A DNA stretch of 64,000 nucleotides from Squalus acanthias (Eukaryota). The stretch's first letter is position 1. Each line of letters starts with the position of its first letter. The notes under the pieces are model-generated. The model was not told where the DNA came from, did not search any database, and saw only the letters and a program-made list of their open reading frames with translations. A program made the translations under genes and the position numbers. This document shows positions 7,309 through 49,645 of this stretch, piece by piece. The stretch is taken from assembly GCA_030390025.1 (NCBI GenBank), contig CM059436.1, positions 30,380,001 through 30,444,000 of the forward strand, in the 5' to 3' direction.

Positions 7309-7311
7309 CAT

Positions 7312-9117: not shown

Positions 9118-10548
9118 ATATTGTAGCACTGATCACTTTGTAAGCAGTCTTCAGTCATATGCACTCTGTTTGCCTGTACTGCCAATTATCTAATTAAACA
9201 GTAATGTAATCTGGGTGTATAATGATGCATTCTCCTTGTCATAGGAACTGGACATCATGTTCTATGCGTGTGTCCTTGTATGTACTTCCTCAGTCTTCCA
9301 GTAGGTGGAATTGATGAACGCTCTGCTAAGATCATGTCAATGTAAAATTAAGGAGTTGGTTCATTTTGCAGGGAGCAGTGATTAGGTTAGTAATTTCACC
9401 TTTTTTTAACTTCCATAATTCTTCCTGTAACATGCATTGCTATCCCAAATAGCAAGCTGAATGCTTTCTTTTAGATTTATTCTTTCTTTCTGGTCAGTTT
9501 CTAAAACTGGCTATATCTTCGCTCAAGCTTGTACCCTGTCATTTGCAGCCTTTGGACCTGACTTCCCCACATGTGGATCATTGTTCTGCTGTTCCCTGAA
9601 GTTGGGGGCTTTCCTAATCCCTCCTCTTGTCTAGTGATTGGCCAGTAGAGCTGCCAATCAAGCCTGCAACCCCACACTTTCCCTTTCTCCTCTTCCCCTC
9701 TTTCTCTGCCCCCCCCCCCCCCCCAACCCTTGAACTCACCCCTAAAATGTGAATGTTTGGGAGCATTTGAAACAATACCCACTCCCCTACTGTTCTCACT
9801 TATAGTTATTATTTCAATGACTTACTCATTACCATATCAATCTGTCTTTGTTCCAATGTGTGGCTCTGAGGAGGATTCCTAATTTTGATCTTTTTAATTT
9901 TAAAATCAACACCAACATTAATCATTTCCAAATCCTTTTCCATGGAAATAGTCAAAAAACCCAATTTATGACTGTGTAGATGGAGCAATAAACTACTGAA
10001 ATATGGGCTTGCTGGGGTGCAACAAGTTTTTTTTGACAGTGGTCATCTTGGGTTAATTTGAAATCCCTTTCTGAACAAGAATGTATTCCTGAGATTGTCT
10101 TTGTAATTTTTGAATAAATTGTTCTATTTTAATATTGATATACATTTTAAACTTGTATTAATGAAATGTTGTACCTGCCTAAGTGTTCACACTGGCTTCA
10201 CAAAAGATAGAGTGCCTAAATAGCTGGCAATATATTGTGCTGAGTATACATAACATTTTAAATTTTCAAGAGACTATATTAGTGCAATCCTTTGTAGCTC
10301 AGACACATCCCAAAGAAACATATACGTAACTTTTTTTTTTAAATTTGAAGTATGTGCATTCTGAGCATGTGCTGCTTGCAGAATTTCCCAGCATTGAAAT
10401 TGTCTGAATTGATATCCCCTCTGTGAAGATGAGAGTTGTGTTGCTTTTTCCAAAAGTCTACAAAAAGCAACCACTGCTGAAATGCAAAGTTGTTCTGACT
10501 TTTGAAAACTGATTCTTTTGATTTCAGTACCACTTGCATGTTTGTACT

Positions 10549-12833: not shown

Positions 12834-12848
12834 ATACGTGTTTAACCT

Positions 12849-14462
12849 ATGGATAAAGTTGGAAAGATGTGGAGCAATTTAAAATACAGATGTCAGAACC
12901 TTTTTGTTAATGAAGGTGGAGGCCGAAGTGAAAATGACTTGAACTATCCGAGCTGTTCTGTTGGTAAAAACTCAAGTGTACATGTTAGTAATCTGCCTCA
13001 GCACGGTTTAAGAAGTCCAGTAAATAGACATGGAGCTATAGCATTGGTTACAGACACGTGTCTAAACACAGACCGAAGAAATGGAAACTGTGTTTCTGAC
13101 ATCCCAGAGATTGTTGAAGCTGATTTAGATAAAGAGAACGAAAATTTGGCTGCTGCACCAGAGTCTCATCTTGTTCGAAGAGACTCTTACTCCCGCCATG
13201 CTCCATGGGGTGGGAAGAAGAAACACTCTTGCTCTACAAAAACGCAAATGTCGTTTGAAACAGATAAACGCTTTAGTAGGACACGGTCTGGGCTACAGAG
13301 ACGGGAAAGACGATATGGTGTAAGTTCCATACATGATATGGATAATTTGTCTAATCGGACTATGACACGGCCGTCTATGCGCCAGCGTTTCCAAGAAACA
13401 GTAGGACTATGTTTTCCATTACGAACACATAATAAACAGTCAAAGAGCTTATTCTCAAGCAGGAGAAAAATTTTACTCTCTGAACTGATGCTTGAAAAAT
13501 GTCCCTTTCCAGCTGGGTCAGACCTAGCCCAGAAATGGCATCTTATTAAGCAACACACTGCTCCTGTGAGCTCGCAGTCAGCTTGCTGGCTTGAGACATT
13601 TGATCCTACTTTTGTTTCGACAGAAGACGAAGAAGATCGACTTCGGGAAAGAAGGCGACTCAGCATTGAAGAAGGGGTTGATCCTCCTCCCAATGCCCTG
13701 ATACACACTTTCGAAGCCACTGCACAAATTAATCAAACATACAAGCTGGGACCAAAGTTAGCACCTGGGATGAGTGAGCTCTCTGGTGACAATCGTGCAA
13801 TGACAAATGGAGACTGGGACTCCGAAGAGGACACAACGACTCTCTGTCTCCAGGCACGCAGGCAGAAACCGCGGCAGGTGCCAGGAGAAAACCTCGGTCA
13901 CTCTGCCAGACCTGGGCCCTGGAAAGTGCACACGCAAATTGATTACATTCATTGCCTGGTGCCAGACTTGCTTCAGATTACAAGTAACCCTTGTTACTGG
14001 GGAGTGATGGACCGTTACGAAGCTGAGGCTCTCCTTGATGGCAAGCCTGAAGGCACCTTTTTACTCAGGGACTCCGCGCAAGAGGACTATCTGTTCTCCG
14101 TGAGCTTCCGCCGTTATAACCGCTCCTTGCACGCCAGGATCGAACAGTGGAATCATAATTTTAGTTTTGATGCCCATGACCCCTGTGTTTTTCACTCCTC
14201 CACAGTAACAGGCCTTCTGGAACATTATAAGGATCCCAGCTCGTGCATGTTTTTTGAACCTTTGCTTACTGTTCCACTGACCAGGACACTTCCTTTCAGC
14301 CTGCAGTACATCTGCCGTGCAGCCATCTGCAGCTGTACAACATATGATGGAATAGATGCACTTCCACTGCCCCCGCCTCTACAAGAGTATCTGAAAGAGT
14401 ACCACTACAAACAGAAAGTAAGGGTGCGATGGTTAGAACGAGAACCAGCAAAGGTCAAATGA
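12849..14462 (+). CDS. SOCS5: Suppressor of cytokine signaling 5 (537 aa; JAK-interaction region, SH2 domain, SOCS box), single coding exon
   Basis: N-terminus [19 protein letters not shown]; [32 protein letters not shown]; SH2 [28 protein letters not shown]; SOCS box [12 protein letters not shown]...[14 protein letters not shown]; C-terminus [14 protein letters not shown]. All match recalled vertebrate SOCS5. Confidence 0.98.
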
Positions 14463-18430: not shown

Positions 18431-21228
18431 ATCTGCAGTGTTCTTGTACCATTTCCACCAATCCTATCTTGAGTAGTGGTCTATTGGGGCCTGTGCCAGT
18501 TAAATCCCACTGTGGCTTCCAACTGGTGTATGTTCCTGACTTTAAAAAAAAATTAGGTAGTTGACAATGGATCTTTTCTAATAGACTCTTGACATGTCTT
18601 CTGTGCCTTCATTATTGCACAATTTTTCAGAGCTTGAAGCTCTTATTTTATATGAAAGTTGAACAAATGAGAGATAATTTGTTGACCTATCATAATTTAA
18701 GTAAGGGGTGTTTCCATATATTTAGCTTCACAGACTGAGCTCCCTCCCAGCTTGCTCCGTGTCCCTGCAAGGTCCTTTCACTATTTTATGTTTCAGTGCT
18801 CCTGTTACTTTTGCGTCTCCAAGCTGCTTGGCCCAGAGCAACAACTTGTATACATCATAGGGGGGTGGAGATGATGTGACCATCCAAGGCACAAATTTCT
18901 AATGACATTGTACCAATTGATTCTCCTAGTGGAATAATAGTGTCCTGTAGGTATATGGAAACTGAATTGCATTTGAACACTACAATGACTCCTGCTAAAA
19001 TTAGGCAAGATTATGCTCAACAAAGACTCAAACCTAATTTTCTACAGGAACTGATTTCAATAAATTCAAGTTGAGATTTTGGCCAAAACTGCATCTTGTA
19101 TCAATTAAATAGCTCTTTATGACCTAAAGGTAAACAATTCCTGTAAAATCAAAACAAAATTGTTCCAGTCTATGTTTTGCACTTTATTGTGTGTTTTACA
19201 TTAGACCATTTTACTAGCTGTTTTAAAGAGATTGTGTCCTATTTTGTTTGCTTATCTAGGTTTTATAAATGTATTTTATGGATTCTGAATCAAAATTAAT
19301 TCAGAAATTGATTTAATACAGTTGTATGGATCCAGAACTATGCTAATTTCCATGAAAATTTGCCTTCCTATTTGAATAAATTATGAAAATCTCAGTACCT
19401 CAAATTTTACAAAGGATTATAAAATGTTAATGGTAGTTTTCACGTTAGTGTAATTCTGTGATTTTAATATTACCTTGGGTGGTGGGGGCCAGGGAGGGCA
19501 GAGGGGAAGGAGGAGAATCTGGATTCAATATTGAGCTAACACACTAACCTTTCACCTCAATCAAGCCCAGAATAATTGGATGAAAATATATATCCTGCTT
19601 TTAATGACCTTTGTAAACTTAGAATTTGGGCAGTCTCCAACCCAGTTCCCAATGAACATTGGTCTACAGCACAAAGCAGCTCCTGAACTGGCATGCATAC
19701 ACTCTGGCCATAAGGATGGCTGGTGTGGGAATTGGAATTGTCACAGTTATGAATTTAACCCCCAGCAAAATATTACACCAGTGGTGCTTTCAATTCAATT
19801 TTTGTAACTTTCATCAGACACCTTAACTGAAGAACCTTTGGTCCTCATGCTATGTTGGTTCTTTTATGCTTGTGAAAGAAAAATGGCACAACTTACTGTC
19901 TTTGGTGCCATTTCTCCTGAACTGTGTTAAAGTCTGCTGTATATGGACTATCAAAATGAATGCTGTCTCTTTCAGTGCCAGTAGGTGGGGAGAAAATGTT
20001 GTCTTACAGCTTTCATCCCTTTTTTGTGTGCTGTGGACTAGTTTCCTTAGTGGATTCTAAAGCACTTTGCACGATTTCTAAACCTATATAAATATTGGGT
20101 TCATTGTTTATTCCTTGGTTTATTTTTCTTCTGGACAACCTGATGATGAACAGACTGTAGAGATTCTGAAGACGCAAGCTAGAACATTGATTTCATTGTT
20201 TTTAAGAGGAGGAACCAAAGCTTAGTGGAGAAGGTTCTAATCTCTGAATTTTTTAAGACTTATCTAAAAATAAAATATTGCACCACACATTTGAGCAGCA
20301 ATACATGGCTCGACTCATGGTGTTTAAGCTTGTAGCAAACTGTTCACGTATTTAGTTTGTTTAAGAAATTGAAAGCTGGATCATCTTTCTAATGTGCTTT
20401 ATTTTTGGAAGACCATTTTTGAGCAAGATGGTAAAAAGGTCCATTTGTTATAGCAATTGACACTTAACATATGTAGTACATTCATGGTTTTGGCCTCTTT
20501 CTGTTTTATGATTGTTGGATACACTTTTTTTCCAGAATGTTAGTTTTTTTTTAAATGTTAAAAGAAAATGTAGAGTTTTTTTTTGTGTGGACACTATGAC
20601 TTGTGGCATGGGAACCCATATTATATGGTAGTATACCTGGTCACTTATTTCTAAGTGTGCTTTATATTGTATTGAAGTTCTTTGAATGTGCTGTCAAACA
20701 GTATTTTTGCAGCTTAGCTGAAAGCAATTATTTGCATATATGTTCTTCAACCCCTCAAACAAATAAATTTGTGCACTTTGAGATTTTTAAAAATCTACTT
20801 TTGCGGGGGAAGTGTGTGCGTGCCTATTGGCATATCAAATGCTTTGATGTAAGCTAATTGCTATAGGTATGTAAAGTAATTAATGCTTTGTTTATAACCA
20901 AATGTTAGTGCTTCTGAATTTTAAAAGCCTGGCTACATTTGTTTTTCTGAGATCCAGCTTTTAGCTATGTGGCCAATATTTATTGTAATATGTATTCTGT
21001 TATACTCTTAACAAGTAAATGCCTGTTTAGGGTATTGTTTACGTTGCATATAAAAATAATCTCTGATTCTGTTAGCTGTAAATTAATGCTCATTCTGACA
21101 TGTACAATACAATTTAGTTGTAGCATCTGTCTCTTCACTTTGCTATAGTATTGCAACTACCCTTCTCTTACTTTCCACCCTGCAGGCTTCCTTGGTGTCC
21201 TCACTCCGGCTTCATTGTCTTAATATGG

Positions 21229-21234
21229 AATAAA
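21229..21234 (+). terminator. SOCS5: candidate distal poly(A) signal of SOCS5
   Basis: AATAAA followed about 25-50 nt later by GTATTTGTGCTTTTTTT. Confidence 0.5.
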
Positions 21235-22435
21235 GACTACACACACACTAAATGCCTTCGTATTTGTGCTTTTTTTCCCCCCTTTTGATCAGTGTATAGT
21301 ATCAAAACTAGAGTGTTTTTTCTGTATTAAGAGTTGCATCGTTAAATCCAGGGAAATTTTGCAAATCCAGTTTCTGATTTTTGTTTCATGCTAGCTGAAA
21401 ATTTTTAACCAAATAAAGGTAGTAAACCATGCAATTTACATCATCTTGTAATTGCTTAACCTGAGCACAGAATCCCTAATTCTGCATTCTTTGCACACAG
21501 CATGTTTATAGCTTAGCTTGATCAGTCGAGCGTGCGCACATGCATATACGTCATTGCGATGTTGCAAATAGGCAGTGCTTTATCATGTACTCTTGTGTCG
21601 CGTAAAGCCTCTGACCTCGTGCTATATTTCTCAGGTAAAGATTCTGCTCCTCGTGTTGGATGTTTCATAAAGTTTGGAACAAAGTTATCTTCCTCTACAT
21701 TGGCAAGCTTGGGCAGCCAGATTATCAAGCGGTTTGTTCTGCACTGTTTGGTTTATTCTGGTTTTTCTTTTTCAGATTTACCAGCAGCCTCCATGTCAAG
21801 GCCAGTCGACATGAGGTGATGAGAATCTAGAAAATATGTGGTCATGTGAGAAGTATAGCTGCGGTCCCTATAGACTATCGCTCCAATCTGGTTTCCACTT
21901 CAGGTATTCCATAGTCTCCCAAACTATACCCCAATTTCTAAAATAGGAGAAATTGAATATGTTCATACTATTCAGGCAGTGTGCCCAGGGGGGGTTAGCG
22001 AGCTACCATCAAACTAAAAGCTTCATACTGCATATGGGAATGCTGCTGGATGTTTCTCCAGTTTCGAGGGGGAAAGTCGTCAGTATAAGGTACTCCTTTT
22101 TTGGCATCTAAATACACCTAGGATTCTTACAGACTTGTGCATCTCGGAATGCAACTTCTACGTGCCTATCCATACCTAGATGATTGGCTCTGATTCGTAC
22201 CTTTTTAATTTGTCTTTAATTTCTTCCTGCATTTCCTTTCCATTGTTTTGCAGTCAGTAATGTTACTCCCCAGTTGTGTGTTCAATTCCCTAGCTGTTCC
22301 ACAGCTCAAGCTAAAGGACCACCTTTCTTTAACTTCTTGTAGTGCCATGTTTCCAATTAATGCCCCTTTCCCTCTTTTAAAAAAAAAATGCACAAGTCTA
22401 TTGTGAATCCTGACCCAGTTGTACCACTTTCAATT

Positions 22436-24262
22436 AAGAACATAACCAGAAATAGGAGCTAGAGTAGGCCATTTGGCCCTTCGAGCCTGCTCCGCCACTC
22501 AACCAGATCATGGCTGATCTACTTCATCTCCACCTTCCCGCACTATCCCCATATCCCTTAATTCCCTTTGTTCCCAAAAATGTATCGACCTCTGTCTTGA
22601 ATATACTCAACAACTGAGCATCCACAGCTCTCTGGGGTAGCGAATTCCAAAGATTCACAACCCTTTGAGTGAAGAAATTTCTCCTCATTTCAGTCCTGAA
22701 TGGCCTACATCTTATTCTGTGACTGACCCGTGTTCTAGATTCCCCAGCTAGGGGAAACATTTTCCTAGCATTAACGTTGTCAAGCCCCTTAAGAATTTTA
22801 TGTTTCAATTAGATCACCTCTCATTCTTCTAAACTCTAGGGAATATAGGCCTAGTCTACTCAATCTCTCCTCATAGGGCAATCCCCTCATCCCAGGAACT
22901 AGTCTAGTGAACCTTCGCTGCACTCCCTCTAAGGCAAGTATGTTTTTCCTTGGGTAAGGGGACCAGAACTGTACACAGTACTCCAGGTGTGGCCTCACCA
23001 ATACCCTGTATAATTGTAGTAAGACTTCTTTACTCTTATACTCTAATCCCTTTGTAACAAAACCAACATACCATTTGCTTTCCTAATTGCTTGCTGTACC
23101 TGCATGTTAACTTTCTGATTCATGTACAAGGACACCCAGGTCCCTCTGAGTGCAAACATTTCCCAGCCTCTCTCCATTTCAGAAAATATTCTGCTTTTTT
23201 GTTTTTCCTGCCAAAGTGGATAACTTCACACTTCCCTACATTGTATTCCATTTACCATGTTCTTGCCCACTCAGTCAACTTGTCTATATCTCTCTGCAGC
23301 CTCTTTGTATCCTCCTCACAGCTTACTTTCCCACCAAACTTTGTATCATCAGCAAACTTGGATACGTCACTCAGTCCCTTCATCTAAGTCATCAATATAG
23401 ATTGTAAATAGCTGAGGCTCAAGCACTGATCCTTGCGGTACCCTGCTAGTTACAGCCTGCCAACCTGAAAAAGTCCTGTTTATTCCTACTGTTTTCTGTC
23501 CATTAACCAATCCTCAATCCATGCTAATATATTACCCCTAATACCATGAGTCCTAATTTTGTGTAATAACCTCTTGTGTGGCACCTTTATTGAATGCTTT
23601 TTGAAAATCCAAATACACTACATCCACTGGTTCCCCCCCCCCCCCCCCCTCTTATCCATCCTGCTAGCTACATCTTCAAAAAACTACAGATTTGTCAAAC
23701 ACAATTTCCCTTTCATAAAACCATGTTGACTCTGCCTAATCATATTAGGATTTTCTAGATTCTAGCATTTTGCCTACCACTGATGTCAGGCTAACTGGCC
23801 TTTTTTTCTCTTCCTCCTTTCTTAAATAGCGGTAGAATGTTTGCTACCTTCCAATCCTTGGGGGCTGTTCTAGAATCTAGGGAATTCTGGAAGATTAATA
23901 CTAGTGCATCCACTATCTCTGCAGCTACCTCTTTTTTTTTTAATACCCTAGGATGCAGGTCGTCCGGTCCAGCGGATTTGCCGCCACTTAGTCCCATTAA
24001 TTTCTCCAGCACTATGTCTTTACTTATACTGATTTCTTTAAGTTCCTCATTCTCTCTAGACCCTTGGTTCCCCATTATTTCCAGAATGTTTTTTGTGTAT
24101 CTTCTACTGTGAATACAGATACAAAGTATTTGTTTAATGTCTCTGCTATTTCCTTTATTGCCAATTATAATTTCTCTTGTCTTTGCCTCTAATGTGCCCA
24201 CGTTTACTTTCACTAATCTCTTCCTATTTACATACCTATAGAAACGTTTGCAATCTGGCTCT
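22436..24262 (-). mobile_element. CR1 (HER1-like) LINE, 5'-truncated
   Basis: Minus-strand ORFs [25 protein letters not shown] and RRNFFTQRVVNLWNSLPQ; reverse-complemented tail at 22436-22520. Confidence 0.92.
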
Positions 24263-24404
24263 TGATACAATGTCAGTTTCCTATTTTAATCAATGACTAG
24301 TGCCCAATTTCTGATTTCCCTTAATTTTAACTTTCCATATTATATTTGACTGCCTTTCCACCCCTTTTTTTGCTCCCTTGTTTATCTGTATTGTCCCCCC
24401 CCTC

Positions 24405-24830
24405 CTAATCTGCCGTCATCACCCCCCTCAAAAACAACCCTTGACCCCTCCGTCCTTGCAAGCTATCACCCTATCTCCAACCTCCCTTTCCCCTCAAATC
24501 CTTGAATGCGTTGTCACCTCCCAAATCTATGCCCACCTTTCCCAGAACTCCTTGTTTGAATCCCTCCAATCAGGTAACGGCCACCCGCCACACTACCAAA
24601 ACGGCTTTTACCAAGGTCACAAGTGACATCCTAATTGACTACGACAAAGGTAAACTATCCCTTCTCGTCCTGCCGATCTCTCTGCAGCCTTTGACACGTT
24701 GACCACACAATTCTGCTCCAACGCCTCTCCACCGTTGTCCAGCTAGGTGGGACTGCACTCACCTGGTTCCATTGCTATCTTTCCAGCCGTAACTATAGAA
24801 TCACCTTCAATGGCTTCTCTTCCCGCTCCA
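24405..24830 (+). mobile_element. L2-clade LINE RT fragment
   Basis: Reads across frameshifts as LDPSVLASYHPISNLPF...QIYAHLSQNSLFESLQSG...TAFTKVTSDIL...LSAAFD(T)VDH, typical L2 RT. Confidence 0.75.
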
Positions 24831-25064
24831 TGGGATTGGAATAGTGAGGGAGAGGAAGGCAAGTGGGTGTGAGATTTTGCACCTGCTCCATTTTGTTCCT
24901 TATCCTGGCATGTTGGCAACAACAAAATATTTGGGACTCCATTATGGTTATAGAAGAAACTCTATTACTTTCACGGTCTATTCGCACACTGTTCCTGTAC
25001 TTAACTTTCTTTCCCTTGGCTAGCCACGTGCTCCACTGCACCTGGGGGGTTTCCTGAACTGATT

Positions 25065-25283
25065 ACTGAGACAAGTGTCTGCCTCTGGGTCAGAAGGTTA
25101 TAGGTTCAGGCTGCAATCCAGAGCCTTTAACATGTCAAGGCTAACACATCAGTGTAATACTGAGGGAGTGCTGCACCAGCAGAGATACTACCGTTCACAT
25201 GAGACATTAAACTAAGGACCTGTCTGACTCCTCGGGTGGATGTAAATTGATGCAGCGTTTCCCTACATTACAACAGTGACTAC
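25065..25283 (+). mobile_element. Deu-domain SINE, 5' part (split by CR1; 3' part at 28008-28097)
   Basis: tRNA-like head GCCTCTGGGTCAGAAGGTTATAGGTTCAGG. It breaks at CAACAGTGACTAC and resumes as TGACTGCACCTCAAAAGTGCTTAATTGACTG, continuous with the intact copy at 45125-45165. Confidence 0.7.
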
Positions 25284-25957
25284 CTGACTAATTGAATTTT
25301 TTTTGATGAAGTAACAGAGAAGGTTGATTAAGGGAATGCAGTGGATGTTTTCTATATGGATGTTAAAGCGTTTGACAAAGTACCACATAAAAGGCTGGTT
25401 AACAAAGTTGAGGCTCGTGGAATAGGCAGGTCAGTGTCAGCTTGGATAAGGAATTGGCTTAAGGACAGAAAACAGCGAGTTGTGGTAAATGGTTGTTTTT
25501 CAGGCTGGAGGATGGTAGACAGTGGTGTTCCCCAAGGGTCAGTGTTAGGACCACTGCTTTTTTATATATGTAAATGACTGATATTGGAATACAGAGTACA
25601 ATTTCAAAATTTGCCAATGACACCAATCTTGGAGGTGTGGCAAACAGTGAGGATGATACCAATCAACTGCAACAGGACATAGATAGGCTAGCAGAATGGG
25701 CAGACAAGTGGCAGATGGAATTTAATAGAGAAGTGTGAGGTGATGCATTTTGGCAGAAGGGATAGGGAGAGGCAATATGGCACAATTCTAAACCGTGTGC
25801 AGGGACAGAGGGACCTGGGCGTTCATGTGCATAGATCTTTGAAAGTGGCAGGACATATCGAGAGAGTAGTTAGCAAAGCATATGGGATCTTGGGCTTCAT
25901 AAATAGATGTGAGAAGTCGCACAAAACCAGGTTATAGTCCAACAGTTTTATTTGAAA

Positions 25958-25994
25958 TCACAAGCTTTCGGAGCGCTGCTTCTTCGTCAAGTGA
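25958..25994 (-). ncRNA. minimal hammerhead ribozyme, mutated copy (left PLE arm)
   Basis: Reverse strand reads UCAC-UUGACGA-A-GAAGC-AGC-GCUCC-GAAAGCUU-GUGA: a C3U core change and one stem II mismatch relative to the right copy. Confidence 0.65.
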
Positions 25995-27266
25995 AGTGAA
26001 GAGATGTATATCGGCACAGCATATATAGTCAGAGAACACTGCCAGACGATTACAGTTAATCTTTCTAACTGCCCTTCATCGCACCTTGGCAGAGAGACAA
26101 TCACTGCAATCAAAGGCGTGAATGGTGTTCAAACAGGTCAGTCAGGAAAACATTACATCAAAGACAATGTGGCAGATGCTGGGGTCTGTATGGAAAACAC
26201 ACAACTTTTTTTGCTGGAAATCACAGCAGGTCCGGCCACATCGGTGTAGAGAGAACAAGCCAACGACGACTCGAGTCTGGATGACTCTACGTCAGGTGGG
26301 GCTACATATAAGCGTGACATGAACCCAAGATCCTGGTTGAGGCCGTCCTCATGGGTGCGGAACTTGGCCATCAGTTTCTGCTAGACAATTTTGCGTTGTG
26401 TGTCTCGAAGGCCGCCTTGGAGAACGCTTACCCGAAGATCGGAGGCTGAATGTCCTTGACTGCTGAAGTGTTCCCCTACTGGGAGGGAACACTCCTGCCT
26501 GGCGATTGTTGCGCGGTGTCCGTTCATACATTGTCGCAGTGTCTGCATGGTCTCGCCGATGTACCATGCTCCGGGCATCCTTTCCTGCAACGTATGAGGT
26601 AGACAACGTTGGCAGAGGTACATGGTACATACTCATGTGACTCGGCCAACATCGTCTACCTCATACGTTGCAGGAAAGGATGCCCGGAGCATGGTACATC
26701 GGCGAGACCATGCAGACACTGCGACAACGTATGAACGGACACCGTGCAACAATCGCCAGGCAGGAGTGTTCCCTCCCAGTCGGGGAACACTTCAGCAGTC
26801 AAGGACATTCAGCCTCCGATCTTCGGGTAAGCGTTCTCCAAGGCGGCCTTCGAGACACACGACAACGCAAAATTGTCTAGCAGAAACTGATGGCCAAGTT
26901 CCGCACCCATGAGGACGGCCTCAACCAGGATCTTGGGTTCATGTCACGCTTATATGTAGCCCCACCTGACGTAGAGTCATCCAGACTCAAGTCGTCGTTG
27001 GCTTGTTCTCTCTACACCGATGTGGCCGGACCTGCTGTGATTTCCAGCAAAAAAAGTTTTGTGTTTTCCATACAGACCCCAGCATCTGCCACATTGTCTT
27101 TGATGTAATGTTTTCCTGACTGACCTGTTTGAACACCATTCACGCCTTTGATTGCCGTGATTGTCTCTCTGCCGAGGTGTGATGAAGGGCAGTTAGAAAG
27201 ATTAACTGTAATCGTCTGCCAGTGTTCTCTGACTATATATGCTGTGCCGATATACATCTCTTCACT

Positions 27267-27303
27267 TCACCTGACGAAGGAGCAGCGCTCCGAAAGCTTG
27301 TGA
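27267..27303 (+). ncRNA. minimal type I hammerhead ribozyme in the PLE pLTR
   Basis: UCAC-CUGACGA-A-GGAGC-AGC-GCUCC-GAAA-GCUU-GUGA: intact CUGANGA/GAAA core, 4-bp stem I, 5-bp stem II and palindromic AGCU stem III. AATAAA follows at 27309-27314. Confidence 0.8.
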
Positions 27304-28338
27304 TTTCAAATAAAACTGTTGGACTATAACCTGGTGTTGTGCGACTTCTCGCATTTGTCCACCCCAGTCCAACACCGGCATCTCTACATCATTTATAAAT
27401 GGAGGTATTGAGTACAAAAGCAGGGAAGTTATGCTGAACCTTTATAAAGCTGTGGTTAGGCCACAACTAGAGTACTGAGTCCAGTTCTGGTCACTACACT
27501 TTAGGAAGGATGTGAAGGTCCTTGAGAGGGTGCAGAGGAGATTTACCAGAATGGTTCCAGGGATGAGGTATTTTAGCTACAAGGTTAGGTTGGAGAAGCT
27601 GGGGTTGTTTTCCTTGGAGCAAAGGAGGTTGAGGGGAGACTTGATAGAGGTGTACAAGATTATGCCTGGTTTGGATAAGGTAGACGGAGAAAGGTTGTTC
27701 CTATTAGCTGATGGTACAAGGACTAGGACACAGATTTAAGGTTTTGGGCAAGAGATACAGGGGGCATGTGAGGAAAAACTTTTTTTTACACAGCGAGTGG
27801 TAATGACCTGGAACTCGCTGCCGACGATGGCGGTGGAAGCAGAGATGATCAATGATTTCAAAAGGAAATTGGATAGGCACTTGAAGGAAATAAACATGCA
27901 GGGCTACGGGGATAGAGCAGGGGAATGGGACTGACTGGAATGCTCTACGGAGAGCTGGCATGGACTCAATGGGCTGAATGGCCTCCTTCTGTGCCGTAAT
28001 GACTCTATGACTGCACCTCAAAAGTGCTTAATTGACTGAAGCCTTTTGGGCTGTCCTGTGGTTGTGAAAAGCACTATACAAATGCAGATTCTTTCTCTGC
28101 TTCTAGGGACCCTTCCTTCTTCCACATAATGTGGAATATGTAATTGTTTCTCAAGCTCAGTATCTTATGATCGAGGAATTCCAACCTCCATTCCAGACAA
28201 ATTCCTTATACCCAGCCTTCTCACTTTGGGCTCTCAACACAATTCAAAAGATACAGCAGTGTGAAAGTTATACTAGTAATGCTTTATTGTTCACACAGAC
28301 CAGTTCTTGAACATGCCAATGAGCAAAGGCAGGAACTT

Positions 28339-28515
28339 CAACAAAAACTTGCATTTATATAGCGCATTTTAAGGTAGGAAAACATCCCAAGGTGCTTCAT
28401 AGGAGCGTAATCAGACAAAAAGCTAGGTCATAGATGTAGGTTTTAATGGTGGGGTGAAGGGAGTGGGGGCCATGGAGGAATGCAGAGTTCATGGAGGGTT
28501 GTAGGGCTGGAGGAA
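28339..28515 (-). mobile_element. L2 LINE 3' end fragment
   Basis: CAACAAAAACTTGCATTTATATAGCGC...CATCCCAAGGTGCTTCA matches the L2 ends at 39911 and 52675. Confidence 0.65.
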
Positions 28516-29204
28516 ATCGTGCCTCACAGGAATCATCCTTCGCAAAGATGGGGGTCAAACACTGCAGCTGATCCTAAAGACCATCTAGTTCTCTAGAGTA
28601 TCTCACCTGCAAATGTTTGTGTTTTACAAAAAGTAAAGTGGGAATGGACTGCCTATGCAGGCTGAGAGGCAGAACTGGCCAAATGCAATGCAGACCTTTC
28701 CTACGACACTGCAGATAGTTAGTGCCAGATCCTGCAGCATATAAAGCCCAAGGCCTGCACTGTAGCACCATTTGATCTGATATTTACCAGATATGGATTA
28801 CCTATTGATCTCTTAAACCCACACCCACTCCTCCCATGAAAATAACTGCACCTGTAGGGGTAAATTAATGGGTGGGGTTATTTGCAGAATAAAGATCATC
28901 CTACAAGATGTGCAAGTTTCTTCCATGAACTGTGGGAGCATACCAAACTGGTACAATTTAGGAGGGAAGACTAATGTTTAATAAATGGCATAAGGATTAC
29001 ATTTGGCAGTCTTACAGATACTATCAATTGAAAAGCAGTTGAGATGTCCAGTACCTTTAACCTGTATCCATGGTCTCTAAAGTAACTTTGCCTTTTTAGA
29101 ATACCAAATCAAATACAACTGACCTACAATGTTGTCTAATTTACTTGCAAGCCAAAACTAACACAATAATTATGGTTTTCCATGTACGATAATTACAGGG
29201 GTTG

Positions 29205-31085
29205 ACTGGGATGATAACGTGCCTCTGAGGCAGAAGGTTGTTGGCCCAAACCCCACTTCAGGACTTATTTACATAATATAGGCTGTGTAATGCTGAGGGA
29301 AAGTTGCATTGTTCAAGTTGCCAACTTTTAAATGAGTCTGCCCAATCAAGTGGATGGATGAGATCTTTCAGCACTATTTGAAGAGCAGTTGTCGCTATCC
29401 TAGCCAATATTCCTTCTTGTAAGTCAGAATCAGATAACTATAGGTCTGTCGATTTAACTTCCATTATCGGCAAGTTGCTAGAAGGCATTATTAGAGATGT
29501 TGTATGATTGTCTTGAAAGAAATGGGGCAATTAGCGAATCACAGCATAGCTTCTTGAAAAGCAGGTGCTGTCTCCAATTTGATTGAATTTTATTTTTAAG
29601 GAATTTACCAAGTTGGTAGATGATTGAAGCCCATGAATTGTGTATCTAGATTTTTCAACGTCTTTGGGGAAAAAATGCTGCACCGAAGGCTAAGTAAGGT
29701 CTCTTTTGGGATTGGCGGCAGATCTTGGGTTGGATAACAAATTGATTGCATTCACTTAGACTGAGAATAATTAATAGTCATGACTCTGTGTGGGGACTAG
29801 TCATTAGTGGAGTCCTGTAGGGATCGGTGTTGGGGCCGTTGCTGCTCTTTTTATTAATATGGATAAAGGCATTGAGGGAATAATATACAATTTTGTGGAT
29901 GATGCAGATATGTGGGATTTGGGACCTTGGGTGGAAAAAAAAATACTTTGGCAGATCAAGATATCATGGGTGAATGGGCTAGTGTCTGGCAGATGTCTTT
30001 CAATATAGACAAGTGGAGTGTGATGCTATTGGGCAGGAGCAATTCCAAGCATGAACACACACTATGCAAGGTTGTGAGCTCGAGGTTGCTGAGGGGATAA
30101 GGACAGAGGGGTTGTAGTTCGTGAATCATTGTTTGGAAAGTGAATAGGGTTTACAGATGTATAGCTAGGATAATGAAATAGAAAATTAGAAGTCCAATCC
30201 TTTTCTTGTACAAGGCTTGGTCTGGTTGCATGTAGAATGTTGTGTTCTGTTTTGGTCCCCTCCACGTGGGTGAATATCAAGGCCCTGGAAAAAGTTCAGA
30301 GGCAGGCCACTCGATTTGGTACCTAGCTTAAGGGCCTTTACTTATAAGAACAGGCTTGGAGAACTAGGACTTTATTTACTTTGGAGAAGAGTAGACTTTG
30401 AGGGAATGTGATTGAGATCTTTAAAAAATAATGAGGCTTGGATTGTCCCGTTGGATAGGTTATTTGGGATCGATAGGTAGAGAAGGACTATAGGGCATGA
30501 GTACAAGTTACAAAAGCATAGAATTGGGTTAGTATGTTGGGAAGTAATTTTCATAGAGTTTGTGATCTCTGGAATAGGTTGCCCGAGTCTGGTGCATTTG
30601 GATTTCCTGCAGGTATTCAAAATGGACCTGGACAAAAGTTCCTGAGAGTGGAAGATATTTCAAATTTGACGGTAGGTGGGTTAATGGGGACTAGTGATAC
30701 CATTCAGCGTGGTCTCTTGGAGCTTGACTAGGATTGCGAAACCTCCAGGATTGTCCTGGAGTCTCCAGGAATTAAAGCTTAATCTCCTGGGCACTGCGCC
30801 AAGAAACCCAGGAGAGAAATCACTGGAGAATTGTTTTCATGGGGTTTATCATGCACCATGTTGTGATGGGGAGGTTTAATGGAGCAGCTAGTCTTTTCCT
30901 GTCCTTTTTTTCTTTTAACCAACACCAAAATAGATTGACTCGTCAATCATCTCGGTTCCTGTTTATGGGACAATGCTGCACGCAAGTGGCTGCCACATTT
31001 ATTTGTATAAGTGACTGAACAGTGGAGATGAAGTACAACCTGAAAATGTGATGAGGTGCTTTAACGTTTCAAGATTTTTTTTTCC
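29205..31085 (+). mobile_element. Deu-domain SINE (29205-29420 and 30915-31085) split by an old decayed CR1 (~29425-30905)
   Basis: SINE head GCCTCTGAGGCAGAAGGTTG to CCTAGCCAATATTCC resumes as AACCAACACCAAAATAGATTGACT. The intervening DNA has decayed CR1 RT motifs (AACTATAGGTCTGTC, GGATCGGTGTTGGGGCCG, TTTGTGGATGAT). Confidence 0.65.
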
Positions 31086-33940
31086 ATGACCAGGATTTGG
31101 AAAAAGTTACTTTTAACACTGGATTTTTAAGCCAAATGTGTATTCTAACTATCTTTCTTTTTTTAAAAAAAAGATGGTGCTTAATGTCCTAAATGGAACT
31201 TTTTTCCCCCCAGGAGGCTAAACTAAACATTTGTTAGCTTGTCTGGGTAATTGAAAAAACATATCGCCCATTGTGTTGGAAAACCCTTTGTTGTCAGTCT
31301 GTTTGGGCAGTAGAGGTGAAGAGAGACACAGATAACACAAGCAGTCTGACTTTTGGAAATGGGATGCTGCACAGATGATCAGGCTGCAAAAGACTGCCTT
31401 GGACTGTAGGACAGAATAGAGGAGTTGGTCTGTTGAGTCATGCAAGATGACCCACTGGTGTGTGTTAATGCCATGTGTTCATTATTACACGAGTCAATTG
31501 AACCAAGTGAATCTGATGATTTATTTACCACGGAATAAACCACATCTTATTTCAACTTGGCTGTTTGAGAGATTGAAGAAATACACATACAAAAAACACA
31601 CTCATCCAGTTTAGGTTACAATGGTTCCATTTTTACATTCTTTCTTCTCCCCCAATCCCCACCAGTGTACAAGTACATATAGGGCAGTGTGTCAACTCCC
31701 GTAAAGGAAAGACAGTCAGACCACTTGGGCAAATAACTGATGCCGCTGAACCTGCAAAGATATCCACAGCAGACCCAAATTTGTAAGAGTGCTATATACA
31801 TGCAAATACTTAAACACATGACTGTTTCACAGTAGATATTATAATGATGCTCTTCATTTGGGAGCAGGGAAGTTGTGGTTTTCCTATATTCATATAGACT
31901 TTCCATTTGGTAGCCAAAATGATTGCTATAAGTTTTTAAAAAATCAACTAGATTGTCACTCAAATGTCAACTATTAACATTTCATATCTTCCATCTGTTG
32001 ATCATCCATCATTATCCTTCTAATCAGTGACTGTTGCTTGCAATGAAGGAGGAGATTTGATTAAAATAGTCCCTCTATTCCCATAAAACCAACAATCAAG
32101 TGTAGTAGCGAGCATTCCTGCAAGCTGGGCCGATCACTGGTTTATAGAAGCAGCTTTGACATTCTGCAAGCACCATGTGTCTTGGCTCGACCTCTGGTCT
32201 GCAGTAGTACAGCTGGGATTGGTTAGAGTCCTCATAACTGGTGCACAACTGGAAAAGCCCTAGATTGGAGGGGAGGAGAGTGCCAGGTTGAATTGAGGGG
32301 ATAGATGACCAGTGTGAACTGGGGAGGGTTGGAGGAGAGTGATGGGATGGGAAGTTGGATGGGGTACAGTTTCTGCGAACTGGGCAGGAGATTGGATTTT
32401 GGCAAGTGACTGAGGTAACTTTTTGAGAAGTGATGTGCTGGTTGGTCTGTTGATCTAAATGTCACTTTGTTTTTCCTTTTTAGAGTGCAAAATTTGTCAT
32501 AATTATCAAAATTTGCACAAGCCAAGATTGTACCTTCACGATTTGGATTTCCATCTCCGGGTTTTTATGTATTTTTTCTCCTGCCATACAAGTGAAGGCA
32601 TAGCGAGTATACCACAAGCTTAAGTTACAAAACCTATGCGACTATTTGTTTTCACACACCAGAGGCTTATAATCAGGGTTGTGTTTGACTTGTCAGCATT
32701 TTAGGGGATGTGTCAACTTTTACTAGTTTTCTAGATTGGCTTGTATGTTTCTTGGGCTTGTTAAGTTCATAATTGGGAGGAGCAAAGGACAGAGGGTTTG
32801 TTCCTCCTGGCGCCAGTATGCGGCAGCCCCGTGGCCCATTCATCTTCTGATGCTTTAATGACTGAGTTCTGTTCACTTCGTTGCAAGCAAGTTTTCTATG
32901 GTTGGTTGGCAGTGCAGTACTCAGTGCATTTTGCACTATACCCACTTCTCCAATTGCCAGTTAAAGAATGTAATGCATTCTACTAAAAAAAATGCTAAAT
33001 TAAGTGTCAAAAATGAAAAATTGAGACCATGCCCCTAGATGTACAGTATACCTACTTCTAAAATTGCTGCTACACTATTGTCCTCTGTTGATCAAAGTGA
33101 GTGGAATGCAGGAAAATAATAGAGAAATCCTGTTGAGGCAAGGCTGGAAGAGAGATGGATGGTTGTTGGCAAAGCGTTGTGAGCCTATAAAACGATGCTT
33201 TAATTCACCACATATAACATCACGAGAAATGTACTAGTTTAATATAATGCAAGGATTGCTTCTCGGTATATGCATGCATACCCTGTGACAAGGGTGCCAC
33301 AATAAAACATTTAGCTGTCCTTGCAATTCATATTTTTACATCCCTTCCAGGTGGGTGACAGAAAAACTGAAGATTTTTTCCAAGAAATGATGGTGGTATC
33401 CAGACTTCCGAAGTATTTCTATTCATGCAGCCTCCTGCTGATCTCTGGTCTTTTTTTCAAATTGGGATGAGATCTAGTAAAGTTCAGACAAGGGCTCCAA
33501 TTCCTCCAGAGTAGGAGTCATGGGAAATGTGCATAAAGAAACAGGAATTAAATACAGGAAATGCTCTAAATGTATATGGCCTTTTAACAGGAACACTGGG
33601 TGAGCTTTGTGCACAAACAGCTTACCTAGGTTCACTTGACTACTGCTCAAATTCCTGCTATAGCCAGGCATTGGGTGCAAGCTAATGTGAATAATATTGG
33701 CCAGACTGTTAAGCTGCTCAAACAATTAATCATGCTATTTGTTGGACACAGGAGCCAGGATAGCTAGCCAGAGTATTGTACTGAACCACTTCACATGGTT
33801 AAGTATCTTGGGTTTTCTTGTAATACTTACAGGAAAAGTTGGCAGGCTGCCCTTTTGAGAATGAGATGGCAGGAAAACTGAATAGTTTTAAAAGCACCAA
33901 TGAAGTCTGGTTTCTGTTGATATTGCTGGGTGGAGACAAT

Positions 33941-34620
33941 TGGCTGGATTTTCATAGGGCCGTGGAGGCGGGTTTGGCGGGTTAAAATTGCGAAAAGTGG
34001 CGGGCGGACCTGATCCCATCTCCATTCCGCCTCCACACAATTTTGATAAAATTGTGTGCGGTGTTCCCGACTCCGTCCCGCCTAAAGAGGCGGGAGAGGC
34101 CATTAAAGCCCTTAACAAGCCCTAAATTGGCTCTGTAATGCCATTTTGAAACGTTTTAGCTAGTTTAACCCTTTTCCCACGTGAAGCATGCCTGATGTGA
34201 AACATGCCAGTGAAACCTGGTGGGAGCACAAGTGGATAGCTGACTATCAGCTGCAGGTCCACTATTACAACGGAGATGTGATGAAGGTAGTAGCCTGGCC
34301 TTTGCTGTGAGAGGTCTCTTGCTCTCTCACTCTCTCACTCTCTGTCTGTCCGTCCCCTGCTGCTCATTTTGCATCCAGGTCCACTCACAGCAAAGGCCAG
34401 GCAGTCTCTGAAGACCTTCAATGCAGCAGCAATGATGACATCATCAGAGGCGACTTTCAGACTGAAACCACTAATTGGTTCATGGGTTCCCACATGCTGG
34501 AACTCAATTGCCCAATTAGGTGAAAATTGCATCAATCTCCCACATCTAATTGCAGTCGGGTGGATAACACGAAATGCGGATGACACGACCCCAACCCGCC
34601 CCAGTATCAAAATCCAGCCC
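33941..34620. mobile_element. non-autonomous DNA transposon (PIF/Harbinger-like MITE)
   Basis: Terminal inverted repeats GGCTGGATTTT (33942) and AAAATCCAGCC (ending 34619), GC-rich GGCGGG/CCCGCC subterminal motifs, flanks AAT / ATT. Confidence 0.6.
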
Positions 34621-35109
34621 ATTGTGATAAATTTTTGTTTTTAATATTGGGTGCAGAACTTCATGTGCTGGGAGCACATATCAGAAAACTGGATGCATGC
34701 TGCCAGTAACTTTCCGCCCATTAAAATGAATGGAAGGAAATTTGTGCACTGCCCGCAAGGAATGGAAAATTGTGGGTAGCGTGCACCAAATGTGCTAAGA
34801 GAATAACCATCATTTTCACTGCCTTGTTTCTTGTGAATCATCCATGTTATAAGGGGAAACAACATGGCTAGGTGTACACCCTGTGCTACCTGAGAAAAGC
34901 TGCCACTAATGACAAGTGCACATAAATTGGTAACACACCCTGCTAACATTGGATCAAAGGACTCTCCTGTGATATACTCCAATTTCAAAGTGGAAGTACA
35001 AGCCTTGGCGGATATGTTGTTCAGGCTTGTGTTCCTATATGGGTTTAAGCAATCCAAGAAGCTTGTGAAGCTGTAGGCTCTTCAAATTTAAGACCTTTGA
35101 TTCTAGACA

Positions 35110-35401
35110 GATGCTTCACTTGTCTAGAACCAGGGGTCACAGTCTCGGAATAAAGGGTACTGAGATGAGAAATTTCTTCACTCAGAGGATGGTTAATCTT
35201 TGGAATTTTCTACCCCAGATGGCTGTGGAGGCTCAGTCATTGAGTATATTCAAGATCGATAGATTTTTGGATATTAAGGGAATCAAGGGATATGAGGATA
35301 GTGCAGGAAAGTGGAGATGAGGTAGATCAGCCATGATCTTATTGAATGGCGGAGCAGGCTCGAGGGGCCAAATGGCCTACTCCAGCTCCTATTTCTTATG
35401 T
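35110..35401 (+). mobile_element. CR1/HER1 3' fragment
   Basis: RNFFTQRMVNLWNFLPQ plus the canonical tail. Confidence 0.85.
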
Positions 35402-35792
35402 CTCAGCACCCTCTATCTTCTTTGGACATAAATAGGGTGATTCTGAAGTCCATTTGTAGAGTTTCCCCCCCCCCCCCGGAAGATTATTTGAGTTTTACTT
35501 GATTCAGAAAATTAGCCTACCTGAGTTGTATCCACTGTTTTGCATTCCAGCATGTTACATCAGAGTGGCAGGACATACCTCACAGAAACCAGGGTTTTGA
35601 CAAAGAAGGGCACGTGATCTAACTTTCAATATAGTTTTGTAACCTGTATTTATTATTGGTAAATCTTTAGTTCACAGATCTGTTCCCCTTTTTTTAATTT
35701 TCAAAAATAATAATGACCTCCTGAAAAAGCTATTAAAATTTGGTTTGGTTTTGAGAGCCTAACTTTTTAATTCTATCAACTTGATGTATCTT

Positions 35793-36395
35793 AAGAAATT
35801 AGGACATAGGAACAGGAGTAGGCCATTTAGCCCCTTGTGTCTGTTCTGCTGTTCAATGAGATCATGGCTGATCTGTGACCTAACTCCATATACTTGCCCC
35901 ATATCCCTTATAACCTTTGGTTAACAAAAATCTATCAATCTCAGATTTAAAGTTAACAATTGACCCCACATCAACTGCCATTTGCGGAAGAGTTCCAAAC
36001 TTCTACCACCGTTTGTGTGTAGAAGTGTTTCCTGAAAGGCCTGGCTCTAACATTTAGGCTATGTCCTAGTCCTAGACTCCCCAACTAGCGGAAAAAGTTC
36101 TCTCTATCTGCTCTATCTGTTCCCTTAATATCTTGAAAACTTCGATCAAATCGCCCCTTAACCTTTTAAATTCCAGGGAATCAAACCCTAGCTTATGTAA
36201 TCTCTCATTGTAATTTAACCCTTGAAGTCCAACTATCATTTTGGAAAATCTATGCTGCACTCCCGCCAAGGCCAATATATATTTCCTAAGGTGTGGTGCT
36301 CCGAACTGAACACAGTACTCCAGGTGTGGTCTAACTAGGGCTTTGTACAGCTGTAGCATAACTTCTACCCCCTTGTATTCTAGTCCTCCAGATAT
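35793..36395 (-). mobile_element. CR1 3' fragment
   Basis: Minus [22 protein letters not shown]...RLRGDLIEVFKIL plus the reverse-complemented tail. Confidence 0.88.
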
Positions 36396-38800: not shown

Positions 38801-39910
38801 GTACATAACCACTTGTGTTCATCATTCAACTTCCTATAGCTGATGATATAGTGACATCTCCTTTATTAAATGGAGTACTGAATACACAAGAAGTTCATGA
38901 TGTTTGATTAAAATTAACCAAGTTTAAAATTTCACTTGAACGGTACTGGAGGGCAGTTGGTACCTTTCATAAACTTTAGATAATGTGGCAAACAACAATT
39001 GGCATTCACACACAACCTGTGACACTGCAGGGAATTCTCCTGTGCACATTGTATGTATACTATATAACGCAAGCACAAGTTGGTACTGTATTACATGTTT
39101 TGTCTACAAATTTTGGCAGATATGGGGAGGAGGGCATAATTTTTTTTTAGAAATAAGAGCAGTACAAGTAAGTTGTGGAACAACAACAAATGCTAAAATT
39201 AGCTAAGGTGAAGAGAATGGAGATGAGACGAAGAGCAGAGAGCGAATAACATTGAAACAGAGTCCGATGCAATGTAACAGAGATCAAGGAACAGACATTT
39301 CAGAAAACACCCAAAGAACAGAGCCAGGTTGAAAGAGGCATTAAATTTCCATTGAGGTTCTCAAGCTTGTCTGTTGTAATTTTGGTGGAAATCTGTGGCA
39401 GCTCTGGAGAAGCCATGAGGGTGAATTTCTGCAGGGGTCTCCTGGTCATCCACCACAATTAGAAGGAATAAAAAGGAATATGAAAAATGTAGGAGGTTTG
39501 GCAAAGTGAGGAGGACGATAAAAGACTTCAGGAAAACATACAAGTTAGCAGAACGGGCAGACAGGTGGCCGAGCCAATTTAATGCTCATATGTTTGAGGT
39601 AATGTATTTTGGGAGGGAAGAAAGGAACCAGGAATGGGAGTACACACTTAATAGTAAGGCATGGAAGGGTGTAGATGAACAGAAAGACCTTGAGGGTTCA
39701 AATACATAATTCCCTGAAAGTCAGAGCACAAGTAGATAAAGCTATTTAAAAAAGCCCAATGGCATTTTGGGTTTTATAAATAGAGGTATAGAGTATAAGG
39801 CTAAAGAAATAATTAAATTTATGCAAGCCTTTGGTTAGGCTGCAGTTAAAGTACTGTGTGGACTTTTGGGCACTTTATTATAGAAAGGACATTAAAACCA
39901 TAGAAAGTGT

Positions 39911-45542: not shown

Positions 45543-45782
45543 TGTGGCGGATCGCCACCTAAAACGGGCATAATCCACTCTTCCGTCTGTGGACAAATTT
45601 CCAGCACCTTCCCTTTATGGCACCTTACCTTTAAGGCAGGAGGGGGGCGGGGCCTCAGGTTTTACCCAGAGAATTCTGGGAGCTTTTCGGTTCTGCCATT
45701 TTGTGCCATGCTGTGATTAAAAAGTCTCTTGTTTAACACAAATGGATTCAGCCTTAATTCGTGTTTCGCGGCAGCCTCAACA
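45543..45782 (+). repeat. 5' LTR (240 bp)
   Basis: TGTGGCGG...CCTCAACA; differs from the 3' LTR by one substitution and one 1-bp indel in a G run. Confidence 0.96.
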
Positions 45783-45783
45783 T

Positions 45784-45797
45784 TGGTGACCCCGACG
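45784..45797 (+). promoter_or_regulatory. primer-binding site complementary to the tRNA-Trp 3' end
   Basis: TGGTGACCCCGACG is the first 14 nt of the tRNA-Trp PBS TGGTGACCCCGACGTGAT. Confidence 0.9.
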
Positions 45798-45822
45798 CTC
45801 AGGACGTATTCCGAGCACTGCA

Positions 45823-48800: not shown

Positions 48801-49628
48801 ACCACCACCGCCGACATCGCCAGAGCCTTCGTCAGCACCTGGGTCGCACGGTTCGGCGTCCCCTCCGACATGACGTCGGACAGAGGTCCGCAATTTACCT
48901 CTGAACTCTGGACCGCCGTTGCACGCAATCTCGGGGTGACCATTCACCGCACCACAGCGTACCACCCCCAAGCCAACGGACTGTGTGAGCGGTTCCACAG
49001 ATCCTTGAAGGCATCTCTTCGAGCCAGCCTCCAAGACGGCACCTAGACCGACCGACTTCCGTGGGTCCTCCTCGGCCTGCGCACCGCGGTTAAAGAAGAC
49101 CTCCACGCATTGGCAGCAGAGCTCGTGTACGGTCAGCCGCTGCGCGTACCCGGCGAGGTCCTGCCCACCGCCACGACACCCTGGTCAGCCGACCAGCAAC
49201 GCCACGACTTCGTCTCACCGACGCTGCAGTTCGCCCCGGTGCCCATTGCCCGACACGGCGAATCCACCTCACACGTCCCACTAAGCCTGCACCAGGCACG
49301 GTTTGTTTTCGTCCGGCATGACGCCCACCGCGGACCCCTTCAACCCCCGTACGATGGGCCCTACAAGGTGCTACAGGCTGGGGACAAATTTTTCACCCTG
49401 CAAGTGGGCGACAGGACCGAAAAAGTGTCGGTTGACCGACTCAAGCCAGCACACTCGGAGCCCGGTGAGCAGGTCCCTGTAGCTCGTCCACCTCCACGCG
49501 GCCGACCTGCCCTCAAGCCGGTTCACCCGGCTGCTCCACGCCCGGCTGTTCCACGTCCACCGGCGTCCTACAAGAGCCGCTCCGGCCGGCCCATCAGACC
49601 GCCGCACCGTCTCGTCCACACCTCCTAA
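45823..49628 (+). pseudogene. gag-pol polyprotein, disrupted
   Basis: Open 45823-47826 (gag, protease LCDTGA, RT YLDD). RNase H (TDASD, YSTFDRELLA) and integrase (HVDIVGP, SDRGPQFTS, ERFHRSLK, GPY) follow in broken frames. Stops at 47824, 48568 and 49044; frameshifts near 48138, ~48400 and ~48620. Confidence 0.93.
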
Positions 49629-49637
49629 GCGGATTCT

Positions 49638-49645
49638 GGGGGGAG
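49638..49645 (+). promoter_or_regulatory. polypurine tract
   Basis: GGGGGGAG ending 3 nt before the 3' LTR. Confidence 0.8.

Follow-up and report, generated by a model that had tools for sequence, protein, structure and literature searches.

A minimal hammerhead ribozyme motif lies close to an AATAAA hexamer in the window (the whole 64-kb stretch of DNA analysed here), within the pLTR of a Penelope-like element (PLE), and an altered second copy lies on the opposite strand. The question raised by this locus is whether the motif is a working self-processing RNA module that comes with its own mutant control, as a sequence-only reading had proposed. Our results make it likely that we are dealing with a standard PLE terminal-repeat hammerhead in a dead, 5'-truncated insertion, one that likely arose by fold-back of a cDNA.

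The hammerhead motif

The two copies of the motif are located as follows:

27267..27303, plus strand: minimal type I hammerhead motif, intact (descriptor match; fit to the published consensus)
25958..25994, minus strand: second copy, altered by C3U (25990) and by an A.C mismatch at 25981 in stem II (arm comparison)

Every part of the intact motif named in the earlier reading was found at its place, including the AATAAA that starts at 27309. Stem I pairs TCAC (27267-70) with GTGA (27300-03), and the core CTGACGA (27271-77) is followed by an extra A at 27278. Stem II counts 5 bp (GGAGC 27279-83 with GCTCC 27287-91) around the 3-nt loop AGC. After GAAA (27292-95) the sequence continues with GCTT (27296-99), yielding a loopless palindromic AGCU and the triplet CUU, with the predicted cut after U17 (27299/27300). 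The G10.1-C11.1 pair consists of G27279 and C27291, and A27278 stands between positions 9 and 10.1. The motif lies in the pLTR, about 310 nt past an endonuclease remnant.

The min-HHR consensus in Fig. S3 of Cervera 2014 (PMC4209133) reads CUGANGAH, G10.1-C11.1 and GAAAN-palindrome-NUH. The motif fits it, in agreement with the earlier statement that PLE pLTRs carry minimal type I hammerheads with a palindromic stem III. By our own count U17 is present in 24 of the 56 rows of that figure, and its turtle row runs GCUU and then AAUAAA.

A strict-core descriptor gives a single match in the window, the right-arm motif, and a similar descriptor (stem I and stem II of at least 4 each) gives none on either strand when the window is simulated 100 times with a first-order Markov model. 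Rfam shows no hammerhead match, whether in 20000-36000 (E <= 5) or in 27220-27400 (E <= 10), and no Rfam 15 covariance model reached its gathering score, which places the motif outside the curated hammerhead families. The assignment therefore rests on the published descriptor and the context. Two other candidates were rejected: a relaxed-descriptor match at 55026, which is non-canonical, and sub-threshold Rfam microRNA matches, which are a product of the palindrome centre.

A palindromic insertion in a LINE

Both copies belong to a palindrome of 1.48 kb inserted in a LINE, which we take to be of the CR1 type by its motifs. The parts of the locus are:

25300..25907 (start approximate), plus strand: host LINE upstream of the insertion, with a decayed RT (Pfam RVT_1 at 25338-25571, E=1.1e-10)
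25896..25907, plus strand: left target-site duplication (TSD), 12 bp, AT-rich (a paralogous LINE has the 12-mer once, at 39773-39784)
25907..26617, minus strand: inverted copy (left arm), 711 nt (against the right arm, 26641-27354)
26618..26640, no strand: palindrome centre, 23 nt, small native hairpin ACATG/CATGT (folding)
26616..27391, plus strand: direct copy, a 5'-truncated PLE with the end of the GIY-YIG endonuclease and the pLTR (family sequence diverges before 26616)
26616..26960, plus strand: endonuclease remnant (93% identity to protein P0005 over 88 aa)
27355..27391, plus strand: one-sided tail of 37 bp, at the right end (accumulation of family ends behind 27349 and 27392)
27392..27403, plus strand: right TSD, with 2 mismatches to the left one
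27392..27960 (end approximate), plus strand: host LINE after the insertion (alignment with other LINEs in the window, in the same register as the left part)

The arms differ by 16 substitutions and one 3-nt gap (711 vs 714 nt). The two copies overlap by 2 nt at 26616-26617; about 25 nt separate their 5' truncations, and the fold of the centre is in register. An inverted 5'-truncated copy, a one-sided tail and a TSD, all of them traits of endonuclease-positive PLEs, are present. Pfam gave no match for two pieces of the LINE part at 27392..27960.

The endonuclease remnant has three lesions, all common to both arms: frameshifts near 26682 and near 26951 and, between them, a stop at 26878. At 26878 the family sense base accounts for 98%, 95.5% and 100% of the depth in runs of other species, and 22 of the 23 matched proteins have Glu at this position. 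We regard the insertion as dead and the motif as likely doing nothing where it stands; a role at the locus is highly improbable.

Placement of the element

The remnant shows VVYLIRC...WYIGET and the His positions of the GIY-YIG endonuclease alignment (conserved C, C, H, H), and a 61-aa piece of it reaches E=0.034 against Pfam GIY-YIG, under the cut-off. Its named close relatives are shark proteins, the best at 97% and 93% identity, in line with the earlier attribution to a shark genome. One of these relatives, the shark protein P0005, bears an RT (RVT_1 E=5.2e-9); the window copy is truncated before this domain.

Protein-based scans yielded one locus among 585 candidate stretches in metagenomes (L001), one among 37 in prokaryote genomes (L002) and none among 14 candidate stretches in viral contigs. 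The exact 23-nt pLTR pattern was present in 0 stretches of the viral contigs and 0 of the metagenome contigs. L001 is a metagenome contig with a PLE that is 61% identical at the protein level. Most close relatives have a CX4CxxC linker, and L001 has one of the general form CX2-5CxxC; the window copy starts after it. A CX2-5CxxC linker before the endonuclease marks Neptune/Nematis PLEs (PMC8557442), and the linker of the relatives suggests that the family may be of this type rather than Poseidon.

L002 (912-1271) is a PLE endonuclease, 68% identical to the shark family, on a 1.3-kb contig in the assembly of a bacterial gill symbiont of a bivalve. It ends 33 nt after the protein match and consequently has no pLTR. 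The contig is likely host DNA in a bacterial assembly, and the identity may perhaps hint at related bivalve and shark PLEs and at horizontal transfer. A literature search on Penelope, shark, Neptune and transposable elements together returned a single paper, apparently on molluscs.

Conservation among family copies

Four of 21 runs, all from other species, were aligned to the right arm (14,078, 51,813, 20 and 2,635 records). Among 20 runs the word share of the locus is 0.44 at best, and 0.05-0.20 for X15-X20, of which X15 was the one aligned. Run X15 (2,635 contigs) is RNA only by guess, and its contigs come without ends or strand; X21 holds 20 reads. Depth differences between runs were not taken as copy numbers.

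Among the 40 listed of 118 difference rows, none falls in 27255-27341; 18 are in the 295 noncoding nt of 26960-27254, 18 are coding and 4 lie in 27342-27353. For these 40 of 118 rows the depletion amounts to P=0.08 over the 48 nt of the earlier reading and P=0.009 over 87 nt, a span chosen post hoc, and the rows beyond them possibly hold minor variants of the motif or even a majority one. The variants that are seen in the motif concern N7 (N7=G) or loop II, or turn a stem II pair into a wobble. L001 retains the core, the extra A and GAAAGCUU. Its outer stem I pair is A-U where the right-arm motif has U-A, its stem II differs, and its hammerhead is situated about 270 nt past the endonuclease. 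The earlier reading had staked the motif in part on conservation of its core and stems among family copies, and both are indeed kept in the listed rows (40 of 118) and in L001. Covariation, with pairs compared across three sequences and a single distant one (L001), would add anecdotal support. An origin of U17 by CpG decay was considered and dropped, since U17 also occurs in L001 and in the 24 published rows.

The left-arm copy

Inside the motif the left arm differs at two places only, equivalent to 27271 (C3U) and 27280 (G to A) in the right arm, and its U3 makes it fail the core feature CUGANGA ... GAAA. Both changes described earlier, C3U and a broken stem II pair, are thus present, and the left copy is the derived one. 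Two changes in 37 nt are, however, in line with the 17 events found over 714 nt (2.4% arm divergence; P=0.22), and likely represent later neutral decay.

The description of this copy as a natural mutant control does not survive in that form: its changes are expected from arm divergence and are confounded, and a published representative combines U3 with G8. This is the Saccoglossus family representative in Fig. S3 of PMC4209133; the pair documented in PMC3088659 is U3-A8 only. We found no measured rate for a U3.G8 core in the literature and no demonstration that C3U alone is null. The left copy can probably still be used as a negative control, though with its two changes confounded.

Promoter elements, poly(A) hexamer and downstream hairpin

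The motif is surrounded by the following elements:

27235..27241, plus strand: TATA-like box of the pLTR (sequence; L001 has TATATAAA at 947-954, the equivalent place)
26020-26026, minus strand: left-arm copy of the TATA-like box (sequence)
27262..27268, plus strand: TCACTTC, resembling an initiator (+1 predicted at A27264, 3 nt upstream of stem I)
27309..27314, plus strand: AATAAA hexamer, putative poly(A) signal (sequence)
25947-25952, minus strand: left-arm copy of AATAAA (sequence)
27317..27374, plus strand: downstream hairpin with a 9-bp outer helix (folding z; kept in L001)

The TCACTTC at 27262-27268 presumably corresponds to the Inr consensus. Its TCACT is found in L001 as well, and three contig joints of organism A lie at 27264/27265. 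A TCACT initiator has been described for PLEs (PMC3846280). A cluster of 91 X6 contigs with loose ends before 27266 was rejected as proof of the start site: with a median loose length of 15 nt, the cluster may come from an indel further upstream.

The hairpin has a folding z of -3.28 in the right arm and -2.44 in L001, where 0/300 and 4/300 shuffles, respectively, fold as well. L001 retains all 9 outer pairs, 2 of them as G.U. With its function inferred from PMC11167929, the hairpin is likely the region where reverse transcription would start. TATA, TCACT/Inr, hammerhead and hairpin follow in the same order in L001, an unplaced PLE in which this compact cassette spans positions 947-1083 and contains no poly(A) hexamer.

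A poly(A) site calls for a conserved hexamer with ends 10-30 nt downstream. A GT-rich run does follow AATAAA. L001, however, keeps the hammerhead without AATAAA or ATTAAA, and the ends of family copies, which have mixed flanks, lie 35 and 78 nt beyond the hexamer (19 of the 1,091 loose-end rows are listed). The link that had been drawn between hammerhead and polyadenylation finds no support here.

Origin of the palindrome

In the 19 of 1,091 loose-end rows that are listed, ends with long mixed flanks lie behind 27392 (85 contigs of X1, 18 of X15 and 4 reads of X21) and behind 27349 (256 contigs of X6). These family end sites match the right end of the insertion exactly and the end of the left arm (27354) within 5 nt. 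They resemble the two internal RT start sites that define the tail in PAc, the Poseidon PLE of Anolis carolinensis (Frangieh et al. 2024, PMC11167929). Both arms extend through the cut site and beyond AATAAA. Since they start downstream of the hexamer and cross the cut site, the template had neither ended at the hexamer nor been left cut; an uncut read-through RNA and a re-ligated circle both fit.

In active family members, transcription would start near +1 (27264), the ribozyme would cut slowly, probably only with a partner RNA or PLE protein, and reverse transcription would start internally at two downstream sites, near 27349-54 and 27391. For the window copy, reverse transcription would have set out from the far site and proceeded through the hammerhead, on uncut or re-ligated RNA, to 26616. 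The cDNA end would then have folded back on the native hairpin, with the 2-nt overlap, and been self-copied to the near site, producing the arms and the tail. The template probably came from a copy that was defective beforehand and was mobilised in trans, a point on which we are only moderately confident. The locus itself, a dead insertion of a very abundant family, matters little; it would make a tidy example of a PLE insertion copied from RNA that was uncut at the hammerhead and did not end at the nearby AATAAA.

A less probable course, though one to be taken seriously, is that the insertion is older than the arm divergence suggests and that post-insertion gene conversion spread the shared lesions. 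Ten substitutions (3 of the CpG-decay type) and 2 indels are common to the arms and absent from the majority in organisms A and B; among the listed rows in which at least 80% of the depth in both A and B differs from the right arm, 10 concern both arms and 5 are private to the right arm. Moreover, the finding of 2 mismatches in the 12-bp TSD has P=0.03 against 2.4% arm divergence if both aged together, and leans weakly towards later arm-to-arm conversion; the mismatches give a likelihood ratio for an older age of about 4 (or 2 for a 9-bp TSD). The differences between the arms are, however, spread without an obvious converted tract (by eye), some shared letters may be subfamily letters of the host species, and defective copies moved in trans have been described (PMC3846280). 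The lesions common to both arms would allow trans-mobilisation and arm-to-arm conversion to be told apart by a simple test in the genome.

Fold-back, though hard to tell apart at this locus from double priming, is also preferred over it. In double priming a dimeric PLE protein would have primed both nicked strands from two RT start sites, with the cDNAs joined at their far ends. In favour of the latter, the PLE protein of the anole can cleave both strands and extend them, and it is a predicted dimer (PMC11167929); the two ends of the palindrome also match two start sites. Two independent cDNAs would nevertheless hardly be expected to end about 25 nt from each other, in register with the native hairpin, unless the RNA ended there, and we consider this reading rather improbable. 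Palindromes can be chimeric, but an assembly artefact is hardly conceivable for arms that differ at 17 places, with a tail on one of them only and a TSD, confirmed by an empty paralogous site, framing the unit.

Activity of the hammerhead

With arms that span the cut site, a template that was uncut or re-ligated and an element that is dead, the proposed self-processing module finds no support at this locus. The two copies lie on opposite strands and, as stated before, cannot dimerise in cis; partners in trans would be plentiful. It had also been argued that a read-through RNA would sequester the active copy. This holds for a read-through RNA, in which the whole motif is paired bar one mismatch, but each arm has its own outward TATA/Inr, and an RNA from the right-arm start (27264) would not contain the other arm.

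A nearest-neighbour model, which ignores the tertiary energy of the core, gives -20.7 kcal/mol for the active dimer, -23.2 for two monomers and -30.5 for a dimer with swapped stem II strands, and the order is identical for the left arm and L001. The unfavourable modelled dimer fits the low published activity: the monomer tested was inactive and dimers were weakly active (PMC4209133). In PAc, cleavage occurs with protein only, insertion is independent of cleavage and no RNA ends are seen at the cut site (PMC11167929). In our judgement, C3/G8-dependent cleavage in vitro would probably be measurable once a partner or protein is present.

The motif might also be conserved for a non-catalytic reason (protein binding, a promoter-proximal element or transcript folding) and never cut appreciably. 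Low activity even as dimers (PMC4209133), a hammerhead that is dispensable for insertion in vitro (PMC11167929) and the modelled dimer energy are consistent with this. Yet the catalytic positions are all retained, whereas N7, loop II and the identity of the stems show variation in L001 and among the run variants, and the anole motif cut in a C3/G8-dependent manner with protein present (PMC11167929), which leaves the non-catalytic explanation improbable. Much less likely still is a right-arm copy that works here as a self-processing module coupled to the poly(A) signal, with the left copy silenced. The motif is intact, TATA/Inr lies upstream with AATAAA and the GT-rich run downstream, and the family is present in X15, the 2,635-contig run guessed to be RNA. 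On the other hand, the element is dead and has no partner in cis, the modelled active dimer is less stable than both monomers and swapped dimer, AATAAA is missing from L001 with copies ending beyond the hexamer, and the 19 listed of 1,091 loose-end rows include no cluster at 27300, which is touched by one joint.

For the family as a whole, we tentatively put forward, while rather doubtful of it ourselves, that the pLTR is a fixed four-part cassette of TATA, a start 7-8 nt before C3, hammerhead and RT-start hairpin. Its parts are retained between sharks and the 61%-identical relative L001. If this were true, the ribozyme would come first in the transcript, and its cleavage would remove the cap together with a leader of 36 nt, switching the RNA from translation to circularisation or reverse transcription, a concrete job for a PLE hammerhead. 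We found no published tie of the start site to the start of the hammerhead in the open literature. The segment 27264-27392 would in any case be a compact substrate for studying what PLE hammerheads do. In X1 and X6 this segment shows joints or ends at 27264/27265 and many short rearranged joints between hammerhead and tail, a pattern that suggests there may be many very short family copies made of the cassette alone.

Comparison with known systems

Most elements of the locus have precedents: opposite-strand hammerhead pairs, tails, TATA/Inr and palindromic junctions are already published. The PLE min-HHRs of PMC4209133 share with the window motif the core, the nucleotide after A9, G10.1-C11.1, a 4-bp helix I, the loopless palindromic 15.2-16.2, U17, the AU-rich 3' flank and the place in the pLTR. 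Opposite-strand pairs occur there too, at about 100-700 bp, whereas the window copies are 1.27 kb apart. A 5'-truncated PLE that bears a further min-HHR on the opposite strand, as found here, is depicted in Fig. S4A of that study. The window stem II (5 bp, 3-nt loop) is shorter than in most rows of that study, and the words 'Shark' and 'Callorhinchus' are absent from its supplement file 2. A 2026 preprint lists one chondrichthyan among the species sampled for retrozymes.

Arkhipova et al. 2013 (PMC3846280) and Craig et al. 2021 (PMC8557442) describe inverted 5'-truncated copies with a one-sided 30-40-bp tail and a short TSD, a TATA about 20 bp before TCACT, a palindromic self-priming junction, a non-LTR target and defective derivatives, all similar to the insertion in the window. 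Unlike those cases, the insert in the window is as a whole a single near-perfect palindrome, and its 711/714-bp arms contain coding sequence and have three lesions in common. PAc (PMC11167929) resembles the window element in its hammerhead upstream of a stem-loop that holds two copy ends, its AT-rich target and its uncut RNA template, and differs from it in that relatives of the window element carry the CX4CxxC linker. Penelope of Drosophila virilis (Schostak et al. 2008, PMC2377424) likewise has a pLTR promoter, and large inverted terminal repeats are common. Its promoter is internal and TATA-less, with an intron, whereas the window element, in which no intron is seen, has a TATA-like box about 30 nt upstream of its predicted start.

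Other features of the window

A young LTR retrotransposon occupies 45543-49890 (plus strand), with direct repeats of about 350 bp that are 97-99% identical, a gag-protease-RT frame of 678 aa (45790-47826) and more pol pieces as far as 49628. By its motifs we take it to be of the Ty3/Gypsy type. Eleven kb upstream of the PLE insertion, a single-exon ORF of 538 aa (12846-14462, plus strand) looks to us like SOCS5, with an SH2 domain and a SOCS box. At 7234-9193 there is a C/T-rich low-complexity tandem array of 17-20-nt units with N gaps, and at 34293-34402 a 22-nt inverted repeat (95%) encloses a 66-nt pyrimidine-rich spacer, for which Rfam gave no match. Finally, 53013-53219 and 59361-59574 are short repeat copies, 92-97% identical and with a tRNA-like stretch, which likely represent a young SINE.
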